Source: Felis catus
Taxonomy: Eukaryota
Direction of reading: 5' to 3'
Length of the DNA: 64,000 nt
Assembly (NCBI RefSeq): GCF_018350175.1
Contig: NC_058368.1
Coordinates: forward strand, 83,826,001-83,890,000
This document shows, piece by piece, positions 28,636 to 47,815 of the stretch. Position 1 is the first letter of the stretch. Each line of letters opens with the position of its first letter. Under the pieces are notes generated by a model that saw only the letters and a program-made list of their open reading frames with translations, did not search any database and was not told the DNA's origin. The position numbers and the translations under genes are program-made.

Positions 28636-29324
28636 ATTCATCCCCCTTTCTAGTTCATGTGCATTAAGCAAACACTAAATGTTTGGATACACATTATGTA
28701 AGACAATCAGTCTTGAAGGATACCATTACTCAAATAGACATTGTTTTAGGCAAAATATAGAGATGAATGATGCCCAATGTGTTTGATTAATTTGAACATA
28801 TTTCTCTATAATGATTCTTTTTTTCTCAAACACCTTGGTTCCACTGGATAAAAAAGGGTTGAGAATGGGGTAAAAGTTAAAGTTATCAGGAAATGCTAAG
28901 ACTCTGCCCACATAACTATCTTCACTTAGATTGAGGCTTATTCTGGGAAGTAGTCAGTACTTCAGAATCAGAAGCATTCCTTGCTCTTTTCCATAAGTAT
29001 TCACAGAATATTATATGTTCTATTGTGTCAGGTAAAAAGTAGTCTTAGATAAACCAGCACCCACTGGATGTTCGTAGCTTGTTAGCCAGAAAGTCTGACC
29101 TGCCCATTACCTGGTTTCTGTTGAAACCTGCAAGTTGTCATTTGGTCTTTGTAGATGTTATGCAAACATTTTGGTATCTTCCAATGTATCTTTAGGTGTG
29201 AAGTTTCTTAAACAAGAAGCTACTTCACTGAAAATTCACTTGATCAACAAGTATGTATGAATGTCTTCACTGAGGGTCTTGGGGAATGCTGGAGTTTTTA
29301 CATGACATATCACCTTGTGGGGAG

Positions 29325-29327
<3 letters not shown>

Positions 29328-29357
<30 letters not shown>
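29328..29357. repeat. (TG)n microsatellite
   Basis: Direct reading. Confidence 0.95.
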
Positions 29358-31246: not shown

Positions 31247-33104
31247 AAGAATATTCAATCTGAGGGATAAAATAAAAAGCATTATTTTAAAAATGGACAG
31301 AGCCTTTGGAGCAGTGTTGTATCATGAAACTTGTGGGGAAAAAAACCATAATGGGAATCTCTCCTGAATAAGGGGAGAGAATGGGACAGAAAGTTCATGT
31401 TAAGAAAAATATGGCTGAAACATTCAAAATCTGATGAAAGGCATGGAAATACACATCCAAGAATCCTAATAAATCCCAAATAGGATAAACTGAGAGATTC
31501 ACATAGAGGAACATCATAACAAAACTATTGAAAGCAGAAAGCAAACTTAAAAACAGCAAGAGAAAAGCAAACTATAACATATAAAAGATTCTGAATAAGT
31601 AAAAAAAAAAAATTCATCAGAAGCCATAAAGTGGTAGAATGATGTATTCACAATACTGAAAAAAAAGCTGTCAGTCAGAAATTCGAAGTCTAGAAATCTG
31701 GCCTTCAAAAATTAAACAGAAAAAAATGCATTCCCTGATCTACAAAAACTGGGAGAGTTGATTGCTAGTAGAACTGTTCACCAGAAATGCTAAAAACTAG
31801 TCTTTCGTGTTAGAATTAAAGTATGTAGGCTGTAAACCAAATCCACTAGAAGAAATAAGAACACCAAAAAAGGGAAATGCACAGGAAAATATAAAATGAA
31901 TATAACTTTATAATTGGTTTGTAACCCATCTAAAATTACTATATTATTCTCCAGTTACCTAAAACAATAATTACAAATATATATTGATGGGAAGACATAT
32001 AAAAAATGTAACTTGTGATATAATATGAAGGAAAATGGGGCTTAATTTTGGTATACTATTGAAACTAAGTTAATATTAAATAAAACTAATGAAAGACAAT
32101 AGAAATCACTCGGATTGCCGCTAACTATAAACTAAAAAGCACATATTAAACAAAATGAGAAGGAAAACAAATTGTCCACTAGAAGGTAAATTTCTAAAAC
32201 AAAACACAGCAGTAATGAAGGAATTAAGGAACAAAATAACCATGACATATTTTAAAAATCAGAAAATAGAAAAATTTAGTTATTTCTTACCTATAACTAT
32301 ATTAAATTAAATTATGTTGTATTAAGTTATATTAAATGTAAACAGATTAACTCTCCAACCAAGAAGCAGAGACAGGAAAAATGGATTAAAAAAACGTAAT
32401 TTGACCATACTTTATCTAAAAGACTCATTTTAGATCAAAGACACAAATGGGTTTAAAGTGAAATGATGAGAAAGTTATATCCTACACACAAAAAAAAAGA
32501 AAAAAAAAACAAAAGAGAGAAGGAATGACTATGATTATAAAGACAAAATAGATAAACATATTTTAAGACAAAATTTCTTACAAGACACAAAGGACTTTTT
32601 CCAAAATACATGAAGTATGTGAAAGAATACATATACTATATATTATATTTGATATAAAAGTATATGAAACAAAAATTGGCATAATTCAAGGGAAAAAGTT
32701 TCAAAATAGCAGTTGGAGGCTTAAATATTCCACTGTCAATATTGGAAAGAGCAATTACATAAAATACAGGGAAGGAAATCAAACACTCAAAAAACACTGT
32801 AAAGCAGTTACATCTAACAGAGATATATAGACCAATCCTCCCAACCACAGCAGAATAGATAAGCTACTTAATTGTATATAACATATTCTCCAGGTAAGAC
32901 CATATATTAAGCTACAAAATAAGTTTTTAAAAAACTTGCAAGTATTGAAACTATTATATAAAGTACCTTTTCTAACTGCAAAATAATTAATTTAGAAATC
33001 AATAACAGAAAATCTGAAAAAAAATCACAAATATATGGGAATAAAACAAAACATTTTAAGCAGAAGGAGAAATGAAACGAAAATTTAAAAATCACTGAGA
33101 TAAA

Positions 33105-33299
33105 AGGTGCCTGGTGGCTCACTTGGTTGGACATTTGACTCTTCCTTTAGGCTCAGATCATGATCTAACCTGAGATGGCGCCCCCATCAGGCTCTGTGCT
33201 GACAACAGAGAGCCCCCTTAGGATTCTCTTCCACTCTCTTGCTTCTGCCTCACTTTCTCTTGCTCTCTCTCTCTCTCTTTAAATAAATAACTTTAAAAA
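33105..33299 (+). mobile_element. Older Can-SINE
   Basis: Degenerate body; TSD AATCACTGAKATAAA on both sides. Confidence 0.88.
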
Positions 33300-34980: not shown

Positions 34981-35259
34981 TATTGACAAATAACAGATCT
35001 AGAGGTATTCTGCTTTTCAATTTCAATCTTTATTACAAATCTATAATATAGTCAAAATAGCATAATCCTGGAATAAAAACAGATTCATAAATAAATGGAA
35101 CAGAATTAAGAGCCCAGAAATAAACCCATGTATATGTTCAAATAATATTTAACACAGACACAAAGGATACACAATTAGGAAAGGATAGTTTTGTATAAGT
35201 GGTGTTAGGAAAACTGGATATTCACATGCAAAAAAATAAAACTGAAATTTTGTCTTAGA

Positions 35260-38200
35260 GTTCCAGTTTAAGATGGAAATGTAGGAAGAGTCTGAACCCA
35301 CGTCCTCCAGGGAGCACATCAAATTACACCTATTAATAGAAAAATTTCTCCTGAAGAAAAACTTGGGCCTGACTGAACAGCTATTGAACAATCAAAAAAC
35401 AGAACCTGAAGAGAATAGCAAGAGAAATGGAGACATAGTAACAAAGGAAAATCCCACCCCCAAAGCTGTGACCAGCAATGTGGAGGGACAGAACTGAGGG
35501 ACCAGGAACAGATCCTGTAATTGGGCACAGAAAAGAAGCAACTAACATATAAAAGAGACAACAGTAGAACACTGCCAAGTGGTGGAAAAACTGTGGGAAA
35601 GCTCTCCAGGTCAAAGGGAGTGGAGAACAATGCAGTTTACACACCTCACCTTAAGAGTCTAGACTAGAGCAGGGTCCAGACACCATAATGGGAAGGTCAG
35701 GATAACTTAGTGAGTGTGTGACTTCAGCATACCCAGTGTCCACAAACCCACACAAACCAAGAAGTACTGGGACACAGAATAAAAAAACAAACAAAAACAA
35801 GCATAATTTAAAAAGGGAGAGGAACTGTGAGAACCCTCTCTCCCCTTCCACCTTGAAAGCACAGTCTGGAGCAAAGTCCAGCTGATTGTGAGTTTGCAAC
35901 CTCAGCAAGACTAAGGACCACAAGCCCATGCTGGCCACTCTGTGATGTTGGGGCACAGAGAACAAGTTACATATTTGCACTTTTAAAAATTGTTACTGCT
36001 TTATTTTATTTTATTTACTTTTTAAAATTTGTCTTCTCTTTGCTTTTTTTTTCTTTTTGGTTTTGTTATTTTCTTTCCAGTTCTCCTTTCTTTCAAGTTT
36101 TCCTTCTTTCTTTCTTCTTCCTTACTTTGTGTCCTTTTTTCTTTCTTTTTGAATGTTTCCTTCATTTTCTTTATCAGTTTTCTTCTTTTTAATTTACCAT
36201 TTTTTTCTTGATCTCTCTGTAAAAAGCTATGGTTTAAAAGAGTAACTAACATATACAGCCACAACTCCAGCCAGCCAGCACAAGTCACCAACCACACATA
36301 GTTTGCAAAGGGGATCATATACACAAGACCACTCTTTCAACTTTAGAGATAAATATTTCACCTAATCCATAGGGCAACAAACACAGAGAGTCAAACAAAG
36401 TAGGAGTCAAACAAAGTAGGAGCACAAGAATGTGCTCCAAAAGAAAGAACAAGAAAAAGACTCAGAAAAAGAATTAAATGAAGCAGAGATAAGCAATATA
36501 CCTGATAAAGAATTTAAAATAATGATCATAAAGATTGGAGAAAACAATGGAACAACTCAGTGAGAATTTTAATAAAGAGAAGGAAAATATTTAAAAGAAC
36601 CAATCAGAACTGAAGAATGAAATAACTGAAATAAAAAATACACTGGCAGAAAATCAATAGATTAGAAGATGCAGAAAGTATCAGTAATCTGGATGACAGG
36701 GTAATGGAAAGTACACAATTTGAACAGTGTAAAGAGAAAAGAATTTAACAAAATGAGGGGAGTTTAAGAGATCATTTGGACAACATCAAGTGAACATTCA
36801 CATTATAAGAGCCACAGAAGAAGAGAGAGAGAGTGAAAAGTATAGAAAACCTTTTAAAGAAATAATCAGTGAAAAGTTCCTTAACATAAGGAGGAAAATA
36901 GACATTCAAGTCCAATAGGCACAGAGACTTCCAAATAAAATAAACACAAGGAAGTCCACACAACAGCACATAGTAATGGAAATGTCAAAGGTTAAATACA
37001 AAGAGAATCTTAAAGCAGCACAAGAGAAACAAAAAGCTACCTACAAGGGAAAACTTATTAGACTACCAGCTGATTATTTATTACAAACTTTGCAAGACAG
37101 AAGAGTGTGGTATGTTATACTCAAAGTGCTGAAAGGAAAAAGAAAACAACTTACAAAGAAGTATATTCTACCCAGCAATGTTATAATTCAGATTTGAAGG
37201 AAAGATATAGAGTTTGCAAATAAAAAAAGGTAAAGGTGTTTATCACCACTAAGAAAGACTTAAAAGAAATGTTAAAAGGTTTTCATTAAATGGAAAATAA
37301 ATGGCCATAATTAAACATTAGAAAAATATGAATAAAAAGATATAAAATATGTCTACATATACATAAAATGCTAAGCAGGGAATAACAAGGAATGAGAAGT
37401 GAAAATTTCCTTTTTCTCTTTTTTTTTCTAGAATGTGTTTGAACTTAAATAGCCATAAAATTACTATGGACTGATAGTTATTTAGGACATTATATATCAA
37501 TCACATGGTAAGCATAAATACAAAACTTATGACACAAAAAATAAAAGGAAAAATAGTATAGAAAATCATCAATCACAAAGAAATAGAACAAGAAAAGAAA
37601 AAAAGAACAAAGAAGAATTACAAAATCAACCAGAAAAAAAATTTTAATGGCAATAAGTACAATGATTGCATTAAATGTAAATGACCTACACGATCTCACA
37701 GTCGGTGAGTTCGAGCCCCGCGTTGGGCTCTGGGCTGATGGCTCGGAGCCTGGAGCCTGCTTCTGATTAAAATGTAAATGACCTAAATGCTCCAATCAAA
37801 AGACATAGAGTGGCAAAATGAATTAAATCGAAGAATGAGGCCCATCTATATACTGCCTATAGGAGATTCATCTCAGACCTAAAGACACTACAGACTGAAA
37901 GTGAAAGGATGGAAAAACATTCATCATGCGAATGGAAGTGGTGGAAAAGAAAAAGCCAGGGTAGCAATACTTATATCACATAAAGTAGACTTTTAAATGA
38001 AAACTGTAACAAGAGACAAAGAAGGATATTACATAAGATCAATCAAACAAAAGGATATAATAATTGTAAATATCTATGTACCCAAAATTGAAGCACCTAA
38101 GTACATAAAAGCAAATATTAACAAACATACATAGACAAAGTGATCGTGATACATTAATAGTAAGGTAATTTAACACTTTACTTAAAACAATGGATAGATC

Positions 38201-39523
38201 ATCCAGGCAGAAAATCAATAAGAAAGTAATGTGTTTTGATGACACATTGGGCCAGATGGGCATAGCAGATATACAGAACATTTTATCCAACACTAAAAGA
38301 ATACACACTCTTTTCAAATACCCATGGAATATTCTACAGAATTATCACATATTAAGCCATAAAACAAGCCTCAATAAAATTAAGACAATTGAAATCAAAC
38401 CATGCATTTTTCCAACCACAATGCTAGGAAACTAGAAATAAATTACAAGAAAAAAAAACTGGGAAAAAGACCCACAAATGTAGAAGATAAACAACATGAT
38501 ATCAAAAAAAAAATAATAATGGGACAGAGGATCAATGAAAGAAGAAATAAAAAAATACATTGAAACAAATAAAAAAATAATGTTTCAAAATCTGAGGCAC
38601 AGGTAAAGCCATTAAAGATCAGAAGTATATAACAATATAGGCCTATTTCAAAAAATCAACTAAACAATCCTTTATCTTACACATAAAGGAACTAGAAAAA
38701 TAGACAAAAACAAATCCCAAGGTGAGTAGAAGAAAGGAAATAATGAGTATTAGAGAAAAATAAATGCTTTAAAGACTAAAGAAAAAATAGAAAAAATCAT
38801 TGGAACCAACAGTATGCTCTACAAAAAGATTAAAACTTTAAAGTTTATCTAAAAACCCTTACCCGGATTCATCAAGGGAAAAAAGGACCCAAACAAATAA
38901 TATCAAAATTAGAGAGGAGTAATAAAAACTGATACCACATAAATAACAAAGAGTTATAATACTATGCAGAAATATATTCCAACAACCTGGACAACCTATA
39001 AAAAATAGACAAATTCCTAGAAACATACCTAGAAACATTCCAATACTGAACCAAGAAAGAATAGAAATTCTTAATAGACTGATTAAAAGTAAAGAAATTG
39101 AATTGGTAATCAAAAACTATAAAAAATAAATGCCCAGGAGCAGATGAACTCAAAAGTGAATTCTCCAGACATTTAAAGAGAAGTTAATACCTATTCTTCT
39201 GAAAATATTCCAAAAAAATATATAAGAGGAAAGAATGTTTCCAAATATATTCTGGAAGGTCAACATAATTCCAATACCAAAACTAGGCACCACACAAACA
39301 CAAAACCTACAGGCCAATTACCCTGATGAATATAGACTAAAAAATCCACAACAAAATATTAGTAAACCACATGCAGTAATACATTTAAAAGCCCACTCAT
39401 CATGATAAGGTGGGATTTATTCCTGGGATGCAAGGGTGGTTCAATGTTCACAAATCAATCATTATACACCATGAAAACAAAATGAAGAATAAAAATAATA
39501 TGATAAATAGATGCAGAAAAAAA
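35260..39523 (+). mobile_element. L1 with 5'UTR, decayed ORF1 and ORF2, broken in the RT domain
   Basis: 5' motif AAGATGG..GTAGGAAGA at ~35270; ORF1 remnant 36976..37197; endonuclease remnant 38190..38435 (MDRSSRQKINK); stops at the IDAEK-encoding ATAGATGCAGAAAAA. Confidence 0.88.
37689..37769 (+). mobile_element. 81-bp internal Can-SINE fragment without head or tail, flanked by a TSD
   Basis: CACGATCTC..GTTCGAGCCCCGCG..GGAGCCTGCTTCTGATT; perfect repeat AAATGTAAATGACCTA at 37673-37688 and 37770-37785. Confidence 0.92.
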
Positions 39524-39635
39524 ATGGTTTCTGTCACACAAGTGACACCAGAAAAGCAGAGATGGTATTGGTCATAGGCAAGGATGGGGGGTGGGGTGGG
39601 GGAAGTGGTCAGAAGGCAGTGGGACATGGTGGACC

Positions 39636-40020
39636 AGTGTTTATCTTACTTCCCTGGGGAGAGAGGTTCTTAATGGCAACATGGGTTGTGTCCAGCTTGT
39701 GATGATGTCCAGATTGTGATAGTGTGTTAGTGTGAGTCAGCCTCATCATCAGGCTGCAGGTCAGGGTTGATCAAACCAGAAGCAGTGGAATTGGCCTGCG
39801 ACCCTGAAGGTACATCACTGCTGTCCTAGGTCACAAACTTAAGGGATCTGCCTGGGAGACCTTGATACCAGTTGCAATGGTAACCTCCACTGTGCCTGTT
39901 ACACTCTGTGTGACAAAAGGTGACCTTCTCTTTAGAATCTTATTGAGAATTTCAGAGGGAGTGTTGTTGCACATATTAAGGAGTTTCTGATACTCCACAA
40001 CCATGCCTGACACCCTGGGT
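39636..40020 (-). pseudogene. Immunoglobulin lambda variable-like (IGLV) pseudogene fragment
   Basis: Minus frame 39930->39727 translates EKVTFCHTECNRHSGGYHCNWYQGLPGRSLKFVT*DSSDVPSG...LINPDLQPDDEADSH*. This matches the IGLV pattern QKVTISC-13aa-WYQQLPGxAPKLLIY-7aa-G...LTITGLQxEDEADYYC. Both canonical Cys are lost and two stops are present. Confidence 0.8.
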
Positions 40021-40212
40021 GCTTAAAAGCCCCTACAGGGCAGAAGAGGAGAAGAGGAAAATCTCAAATCATTACCTAACCATACACCTAAAGGGCTACA
40101 AAACAACAGCAAATGAAACTTAATGCCAGAATAAGAGGGGGAATAATAAAGATTAGGGAAGAAATAAATGATGTAGGAATAAACAACAGCAACAACAACA
40201 ACAAAACAATAG

Positions 40213-40302
40213 TGGAGCACCTGGGTGGCTCAGTTAGTTAAGCATCTGACTCTTGATGTCAGCTCAGGTCATGATCTCACGGTTCATAGGATCAAGATCA
40301 AG
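40213..40302 (+). mobile_element. Can-SINE 5' half
   Basis: GGAGCACCTGGGTGGCTCAG..GGTTCATAGGATCAAG, then abrupt loss of similarity. Confidence 0.88.
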
Positions 40303-40683
40303 CACAGTGTAATTATCCTTTTTAGTGGAGTCTTTGGTTTTGGAATCAAGGTAATTCTGGCCTCGTAGACTGAGTTTGGAAGTTTTCCAGACATCTCTAT
40401 TTTATGGAATAGTTTGAGAAGAATAGGCATTAACTGTTCTTTAAAATTTTGGTACAATTCTCCTGTGCAGTCGTCTGGCCCTGGACTTTTGTTAGTTGGA
40501 GAGTTTTGGTTACTGATTGAATTTTTTTGCTGGTTATCAGTCTGTTAAAATTTTCTATTTTTTCCCGCTTCAGTTATTGTTATTTGTATATTTCTAGGAA
40601 TGTACCCATTTTTTCCAGATTTCCCACTTTGTTGGCATATATATATATATATATTTTTTTTTAATAAAATTCTAATTGTATTT

Positions 40684-40890
40684 GGGGCATCTGGGTGGCT
40701 CAGTCGGTTAAGTGTCTGCCTTCAGCTCAGGTCATGATCTCACAGTTTGTGAGTTCGAGCCCCACGTCAAGCTCTGTGCTGACAGCTCAGAACCTGGAGC
40801 CTCCTTTGGATTCTGTGTCTCCCTCTCTCTCTGCCCTCCCCTGCTCATTCTCTGTCTCTCTCTGTCTCAAAAATAAATAAAAACATTTAA
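40684..40890 (+). mobile_element. Can-SINE
   Basis: TSD AAAATTCTAATTGTATTT at 40666-40683 and 40891-40908. Confidence 0.95.
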
Positions 40891-41059
40891 AAAATTCTAA
40901 TTGTATTTCTGTGGTGTTGAATTTGATTGTACCTGTCATTCATGATGTTATATATTTGTTACTCTTTTCTTTTGGTTAGTCTGGCTAGGGGGTTATCAAT
41001 TTTATTAATTATTTTAGAGAACCCATTCTTAGTTTCATTACTGTATTCTATTTTTGGTC

Positions 41060-41188
41060 TAAATATTTATTTATTTTGACAGAGGGAGAGAGCGTGCGCG
41101 CACATGAGTGGGGAAGGGGCAGACAGAGAGGGAGAGAGATAATACCAAGCAGGCTCCAGACTGTAACACAGAGCCCAATTAGGGGCTG
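41060..41188 (-). mobile_element. Can-SINE 3' half
   Basis: Minus strand AGCCCCTAATTGGGCTCTGTG..CT tract..AAAATAAATAAATATTTA; no head. Confidence 0.85.
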
Positions 41189-42449
41189 TGTGTTAACTAA
41201 CTAGAACTTAAATAAGATTTTTTAAAAAATATATACCATGATACTGGCGCAAAAGTAGACACACAGATCAATGGAACAGAATAGAAAACCCAGAAATGGA
41301 CCCACAACTATAGATCAACTGATCTTTAACAAAGCAAGAAAGAATATCCAATGGAAAAAAGAAAGTCTCTGAAAAAAATGGTGTTTGGAAAACTAGACAG
41401 AAAATTGCAAAAGAATAAAACTGGAGCACTTACTTACACCATGAACATAAATATATTCAAAATGAATGAAAGACCTGAAGTTGAGAGAGGAAACTATGAA
41501 AATCCTAGAGAAGAAAATGGGCAGTAAACTCTTTGAACTCAGTCATAACAACTTACTAGTTGTTGCCAGAGGCAAGAGAAACATGTTGCCAGAGGCAAGG
41601 GAAACAAAAGGGAAAACTAGACATGTTGCCAAAGGCAAGGGAAACAAAAGCAAAACTAACTATTGGGACTTCACCAAGGTGAAAAGCTTCTGTACAGGTA
41701 AGGAAACAATCAAGAAAACTAAAAGGCAACCTTTGGAAAGGTAGAAGATATTTGCAAATGATATATCTGATAAAGGGTTAGTATCCAAAATCTATAAAGA
41801 ACTTACCAAGTCAACACCCAAAAAAGAAATAATCCAGTGAAGAAATGGGGAGCCTACCTGAATAGACACATGCACTCCTTTGTTTCTGGCAGCATTTTCA
41901 GCAATAGCCGAATTATGAAAACAGCCCAAATATCCATCAGATATAGATATAGATCTATATATAGATATCTATAGATATATAGATATATATACAATAGTGT
42001 CAGCCATAAAAAAAAAATGAGATTTTGCCATGTTCAAGACACAGATGGAGCTAGAGTGTATATGCTAAGTGAAATAAGTCATTCAGAGAAAGAAATTTAC
42101 TATATGATTTAAACTCATGTGTGGAATTTAAGAACCAAAATAGATGAAAATGGCAGCAAGAAAAAAAAGGAGAGAGCAAGGTAAACCATAAAAGAGACTC
42201 AACTATACAGAACAAACTGAAGGTTTCTTGAGGAGAGGTGGACAGGGGGATGGGCTAAATTGGTGATGGGTGTTAAGGAGGGCACTTGTGATAAACACTG
42301 CATAATTATATAAACACATCATATGTAAGTGATGAGTCAAAAAATTTTATTCCTGGAACTAATATTACACTATGTGGTAACTAAGTAGAACAAAATTAAA
42401 TACAAACTTTATAAAAGAAAAAAAAACAAAAAAGTTAAATAAATTTTAA

Positions 42450-46855: not shown

Positions 46856-47815
46856 CTACTTTATAGTTTCCTGAAAGACAAATTCCACATTCAACATTTT
46901 TTTTAGTGCCTTTGTAACATCCTTATTCCTAAGACTATAAATTAAAGGGTTTAGAACAGGAGTGAGTATGGTGTAAAAGACAGATACAATCATGTCATTC
47001 TCAGGGGTGTGGTAGGAATTGGGGAGCATGTAGGTATACACGGCAGCCCCATAGAAGAGGATGACAACAGTCATGTGGGAAGAACAAGTAGCAAAGGCCT
47101 TTTTCCGCCCCTCTGCTGACTTCATCCTGTGGATGGTGAAGAGGATGAAAGAATAGGAGCTTGAAATGACTGTCACAGGAATGAGGAGCATGAGAACGCA
47201 ACATAAGTACATAAGTGTCTCATAGATGGAAGTGTCTGAGCAGGAAAGCTTCATTACAGCAGGGACTTCACAGAAGAAATGATGGATCTCCCTGGATCTG
47301 CAGAAAGGGAAGGTCATGGTGACAGGAGTGAGCATAAATCCATCCACAGATCCCAGCAACCAGCAGGAAGACACCAAGATGAGGCATACCCTATGGTTCA
47401 TGAGGATAGGATAACGGAGTGGATGGCAGATGGCCACATAGCGGTCATAGGCCATGGCAGCTAGAAGGAAAAATTCTGAACCTACCAGTGTCAAATAGAG
47501 AAACATCTGCATCCCACATTCAGGGGCTGAGATCTTATTCACACCCATAACCTGGTCCATGAGCATCTTGGGCACAATGACAGAAATGTACATCACATCC
47601 ATGAGAGACAACTGAGTGATAAAAAAGTACATGGGGTTATGAAGGTGAACATCATAGTGTATCAAAAGGATCAGCATGGTGTTTCCAGACAAGGCCATCA
47701 GGAAAACCACAAAAATGACCACACAAAGCAGAGATGGGTGCTTGGATTGACTGAAGAGTCCCACTAGATCAAAATCTGATCGTACAGTATGGTTGGCCAC
47801 CCAAGTGTTTTCCAT
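46856..47815 (-). CDS. OR2T29: Olfactory receptor, family 2 subfamily T (OR2T5/OR2T29-like), intact 319 aa single coding exon
   Basis: OR signatures: N-glycosylation [78 protein letters not shown]2T-specific stretches [31 protein letters not shown]. The OR call is near certain; the exact paralog symbol is only a best guess. Confidence 0.96.

Follow-up and report, generated by a model that had tools for sequence, protein, structure and literature searches.

The question raised by this locus is how a sequence resembling an immunoglobulin lambda V gene (IGLV) came to lie close to an olfactory receptor gene of the OR2T group in the cat genome. The sequence in question occupies the minus strand of a 530-bp non-repeat island (39525..40054) within the window, i.e. 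the whole 64-kb stretch of DNA that was analysed, and the island stands out by its base composition, with 49% G+C as compared to 36% in the window. Comparison of the island with all repeat copies in the window yielded no match, and a six-frame scan for retroelement domains also yielded none.

Identity and anatomy of the decayed V exon

The minus-strand frame from 39930 reads as quoted in the initial annotation, with two stop codons, a TAG at 39828 in place of the Tyr that should follow FR2 and a TAA at 39729 in the Cys104 position, and the only open reading frame at the locus (39831-40004, 57 aa) lies, as had also been stated, in the wrong frame. When the translation of 39930-39727, with stops as X, was compared with the PDB, 2187 matches were recorded at E up to 10, the best of them at 3e-9. 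The best 60 of these are antibody light chains or single-chain fragments, and every one of the 60 that names a class or gene is lambda. A neighbouring frame returned a single match at E 1.5. A full HMMER scan of 1.84 billion representatives yielded 6 matches, all of them immunoglobulin V domains (five lambda-type and one fish kappa). Two lambda HMMs run on the six frames of the window gave one match each, at E 7e-11 and 7e-7, with next best values of 2.4 and 2.8. Their scores for the relic were 40.5 bits as compared to at most 11.4 in shuffles (1906 scored of 2000), and 27.3 bits as compared to at most 9.6 (1745 scored of 2000), one HMM being partly circular, as the proteins used to build it had been retrieved with the relic, and the other being one step removed.

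At the DNA level, an nhmmer profile of three V genes has its sole match in the window at 39891-39735 (E 3.6e-5), and the relic is the only V-like match in the 64 kb. A stricter alignment to one of these reference V DNAs (L002) reaches a score of 79, against at most 67 in 150 shuffles; loosely scored alignments to L002 and L003 are no better than shuffles. The DNA pattern scan returned nothing in viral contigs or metagenomes and one contaminant in genome contigs. This contaminant (L001:1-347) is a 347-bp contig of a marine bacterial assembly and carries a rearranged lambda V-J antibody sequence.

The reading as a decayed IGLV, to which the initial annotation had opposed the outcome of no significant IGLV match, is borne out by the PDB match, by HMM scores above those of all scored shuffles and by the nhmmer match. 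Judged by its sequence, the relic is a lambda V gene by descent, of clan I and of IGLV1/2-type. Pfam detects no immunoglobulin domain in it and a word-index protein search finds no match, which places the relic below routine annotation. A sub-threshold Pfam match to Myc_target_1 (E 0.016, 15.6 bits against a cut-off of 31.1) was taken as chance.

The core of the exon, from the end of FR1 to the Cys104 position (39727..39930, minus strand), is the part delimited by the homology searches. Position 23 is His and position 104 is a stop, so that both cysteines are gone; of the features of a functional IGLV, Cys23, Cys104 and the open frame are absent and only Trp41 remains. The 13 residues between position 23 and Trp41 confirm the lambda-like spacing noted earlier; among 95 usable proteins of a set of 120 functional lambda V proteins (P0008-P0127), this spacing is 13 in 34 and 14 in 59. 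The FR2-to-CDR2 stretch comprises 23 residues and aligns with IGLV1/2 without gaps. These two features together fit IGLV1/2, the stretch speaking against IGLV5 and presumably against VpreB, and the lengths of CDR1 and CDR2 are those of clan I. Nucleotide identity to three V DNAs, none of them from cat, is 48-59% on ungapped blocks, against the subgroup criterion of >75%. FR3 is indeed shortened, with 6-7 codons missing. The V domain of a predicted raccoon dog protein (P0006) is also shortened in FR3, by a different and longer deletion, and it is for this reason that P0006 scores best against the relic.

Upstream of the core, a weak FR1 match, placed by geometry, probably represents the exon start (39931..39986, minus strand), shifted by about one base relative to the reading frame of the core, as suggested by a spacing of 32 against 33 expected. 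Alignment of FR1 to L001 and L002 reaches 39961-39963, and FR1 aligning from 39963 would place the splice acceptor at about 39987. The exon start proposed earlier at 40019 lies 28 nt too far out, and the FR1 geometry makes a candidate acceptor at 39987..39990 (minus strand) the more likely one. The intron ends of L002 and L003 show no homology at either acceptor site. No leader exon was detected in the 80 nt before FR1, where 76 and 313 of 1000 shuffles score as high, and no octamer promoter in the right orientation was detected upstream of the relic. Leader-peptide (43 sequences) and RSS read-through tail (18) HMMs, which have little power, matched nothing in the window. Overall, intron, leader and 3'-flank homology of the relic does not rise above chance.

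The 3' end retains a CDR3 remnant (39692..39735, minus strand) with two tandem duplications, one of 17 nt at 39725-39692 (14/17 matches, reached by 1 of 1000 shuffles) and a probable one of 8 nt at 39735-39720 (7/8 matches, reached by 18 of 1000). Beyond it, a possible dead 23-RSS spans 39636..39674 (minus strand). The resemblance to a spacer end and nonamer at 39654-39636 that had been pointed out holds weakly above chance, and the heptamer, already reported as unrecognisable, is absent at its expected place (39674-39668). The motif ranks 9th or 35th of 127,962 positions, and its occurrence within 170 nt of the exon has a P of about 0.01-0.05. In 17 of 18 read-through proteins the Cys104 and heptamer codons are nine residues apart, so a nonamer is expected 59 nt after the Cys codon; the candidate starts at 82 nt, and at 57 nt once both duplications are removed. 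With the heptamer lost and the spacer end and nonamer weakly recognisable, the element is not a functional 23-spacer RSS, and its reading as a dead one is only suggestive. Elsewhere in the window, 29293-29331 (minus strand) resembles a 23-RSS by chance; a CA repeat supplies its heptamer where it ends, and there is no V sequence upstream.

Extent of decay and probable age

The relic has diverged far from functional genes. Its best framework identity to the 95 usable proteins is 22/41, as compared to a mean pairwise identity of 74% among the functional proteins. The top framework matches are to one bat and one monkey protein, while the identities of seven felid proteins are no higher than 16-18 of 41. 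Relative to L001, the three codon positions show 15/14/21 mismatches, against 6/7/16 between two functional genes; erosion of the first and second codon positions to the extent that neutrality predicts indicates neutral decay. The island has also lost its CpG dinucleotides, with one in 533 bases and an observed/expected ratio of 0.03 against 0.33-0.42.

In simulation, an identity of 22/41 corresponds to about 0.2-0.4 changes per site, a rough measure of age, as only 41 residues are compared, and to functional genes other than the true parent. At mammalian rates, decay of this size suggests that the relic arose long before the cat family did, and its age could come near to that of the placental radiation, though part of the decay may have taken place inside the IGL locus before the move.

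Chromosomal setting and route of arrival

The only olfactory receptor match in the window is an intact OR2T29-like gene of 319 aa (46856..47815, minus strand), 6.9 kb from the V relic and 97-99% identical to felid proteins. It lies on a contig of 239,367,248 bp that also bears a Felis catus-named paralogue, and its felid orthologues sit on contigs of 235-240 Mb. In an OR tree of 26 of the 120 matches, the gene and its felid orthologues form a well-supported branch of their own, which does not include another OR2T29-like cat gene carried by this contig (89% identical). The tree has no bearing on the relic. By inference, the chromosome of the window is cat A1. Chromosome D3 is presumably under 100 Mb. 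The relevant passages of PMC5629197 map cat IGLV and IGLC to D3 and unplaced scaffolds. With IGL on D3 and the window on a 239-Mb contig, the relic lies outside the major locus and is an orphon, as the initial annotation had suspected; the same ground rules out its other suggestion, an IGL locus adjoining the OR cluster in this lineage.

The island is bordered by two L1 elements, both on the plus strand. The left one (35255..39524) is an old L1 that runs from a 5' UTR-like start, which we take to be such by eye, through ORF1 to the reverse transcriptase start of ORF2, and ends at an A8 run 23 nt after AATAAA (39488-39524). As AATAAA followed by an A run fits premature L1 polyadenylation, it is possibly a prematurely polyadenylated copy. 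To the right, 40055..42425 belongs to another old L1, which has a 5' truncation where it borders the island and carries SINE insertions, and whose pieces probably make up one element. Its inner piece 40313-41052 is inverted, with the break near the end of the 40055-40188 piece and a SINE fragment at the breakpoint; an extension of this L1 to about 40017 was dropped, being unsupported in 3 of 4 copies. The L1 coordinates covered by the two elements overlap, and their sequences differ at 29% of sites. Of 253 sites, 3 are exclusive to the pair, as compared to 12 for a related pair and no more than for unrelated copies, and the two are therefore not one split element. Their sequences identify them as independent insertions. 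No target-site duplication was found for either, and their JC distances to the youngest L1 copy of the window are 0.22-0.35. This youngest L1 (12087-17164, minus strand) retains long ORF1 and ORF2 pieces with broken frames; translations of 31254-33105 (plus strand) resemble very old L1 ORF1/ORF2 that self-comparison missed.

Taken together, these observations probably reflect an ancient and inert IGLV1/2-type orphon pseudogene, which arose when germline lambda-locus DNA was copied into the OR2T region and was then decayed and trimmed. A piece of the lambda locus would have been copied there as DNA in the distant past, probably at a time before there was a cat family, with duplicative transposition or break repair as the probable route. 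As there would be no J-C cluster on this chromosome, the V copy could never have joined a light chain, and its uselessness would have left it to neutral decay, with loss of both cysteines, stops, the FR3 deletion, small tandem duplications, CpG loss and loss of the heptamer. L1 insertions and deletions on both sides would then have stripped the leader and promoter and left the 530-bp island. Since intron, leader and 3'-flank homology is lacking, arrival at the DNA level is something we infer; the sense 3' end bears no poly(A) and is followed by a T run.

The initial annotation had pictured a capture in which only about 0.5 kb of germline IGLV was patched into a break that separates two pre-existing L1 fragments. 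The abrupt stop of the left L1 in ORF2 where the island begins, an uncommon feature among L1 elements, agrees with such a capture, as do the sharp edges of a G+C-rich island containing little besides the V exon and RSS. However, the flanks are two unrelated L1s without a detectable target-site duplication, the right edge shows the usual 5' truncation of an L1, and AATAAA with the A8 run at the left edge fits premature polyadenylation or a later deletion. Two independent insertions make a broken L1 unnecessary, and the island could equally represent older DNA that remained as L1 insertions and deletions took place around it. Capture is unlikely. A retrocopy that the L1 machinery produced from a sterile germline V transcript would suit the size of the piece and its L1-rich setting; such a transcript could conceivably run through the RSS, and a processed IGL orphon is known in human from the portion of PMC7555362 that treats orphons. 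Nevertheless, a T run in place of an A tail, no target-site duplication and no leader exon match in the 80 nt before FR1 make this route very improbable.

A lost physical link, with the lambda locus once beside the OR cluster and a distal V pseudogene left behind on parting, would accommodate the deep decay of the relic. The mouse Igl locus presumably adjoins Or2m/Or2l genes on chromosome 16, an adjacency for which the open literature searched held no confirmation, and the window presumably lies close to where a human-chromosome-13 block ends, which is likely to be an edge of rearrangement. On the other hand, the relic is a single V sequence in 64 kb of A+T-rich DNA, and the IMGT-based account in PMC13113880, as far as its passages on IGL 5' neighbours go, gives TOP3B in 6 of 13 species, SLC5A1 in 3 and none defined in 4, and includes no OR gene; a lost link is improbable. 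It would be a long shot, too, that the relic dates back to the placental radiation and is orthologous in many mammals, recording an early contact of the lambda locus with OR2T/2M/2L genes, whether through a linkage since lost or through a stray V copy from which the mouse Igl-Or2m/Or2l rearrangement later started. Misjoining of an IGL piece into the OR cluster during assembly, for which the misplaced Ig genes of cat assemblies described in part of PMC5629197 offer a precedent, is scarcely credible. A unique piece of 530 bp is an unlikely misjoin, and all 57 sampled words of 39520-40060 are present in 20 of the 24 sequencing runs listed, although these words extend only a few bases past the island edges and so show that the island exists and not where it lies. 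Of these 20 runs, 14 are flagged as a possible source, and the flag is missing from the other 6, which come from 4 studies. In three runs listed for a second organism next to none of the words occur, which carries no weight either way.

Comparison with known immunoglobulin genes

The relic resembles functional IGLV1 and IGLV2 of carnivores and other mammals in its spacing of 13, its ungapped FR2-CDR2 and the motif before Cys104. It differs from them in a framework identity of at most 22/41, the loss of both cysteines, two stops, the FR3 deletion and the missing heptamer. The motif before Cys104 is also common to IGLV5-type genes and VpreB. However, IGLV5-type domains need a longer CDR2 than the relic has, and they score E 0.002 and 0.097, as compared to 3e-6 to 8e-5 for intact IGLV1-type domains. 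VpreB does not appear among the best 60 of the 2187 PDB matches.

Neither a cat IGLV orphon nor an IGL-OR adjacency was found in the open literature searched, a scope that excludes subscription papers and IMGT gene tables, and the relevant portions of PMC8945572, PMC9614664 and 10.1101/2022.05.01.489089 hold nothing further bearing on the relic. In human, according to the orphon section of PMC7555362, 76 of 465 IG genes are orphons, four of them IGLV; the IGL orphons listed by IMGT comprise two IGLV on chromosome 8, a further two IGLV, together with two IGLC, on 22q but outside the locus, and one processed IGLJ-C on chromosome 18. Like these, the cat relic is a lambda segment outside the major locus that makes no contribution to light chains; unlike them, it is a fragment without leader or promoter beside an OR2T gene. 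We also take the human IGL orphons to be far less decayed.

Orphons are an established class, to which the cat relic adds one member, notable mainly for its apparent great age. Its functional meaning is slight, as it is unusable in an antibody. It does show that immunoglobulin orphons can persist below standard annotation, with no Pfam match. If it proves common to carnivores or beyond, the relic would put a date on DNA traffic that linked the lambda locus to an olfactory cluster, and would preserve an early V gene of clan I in fossil form.
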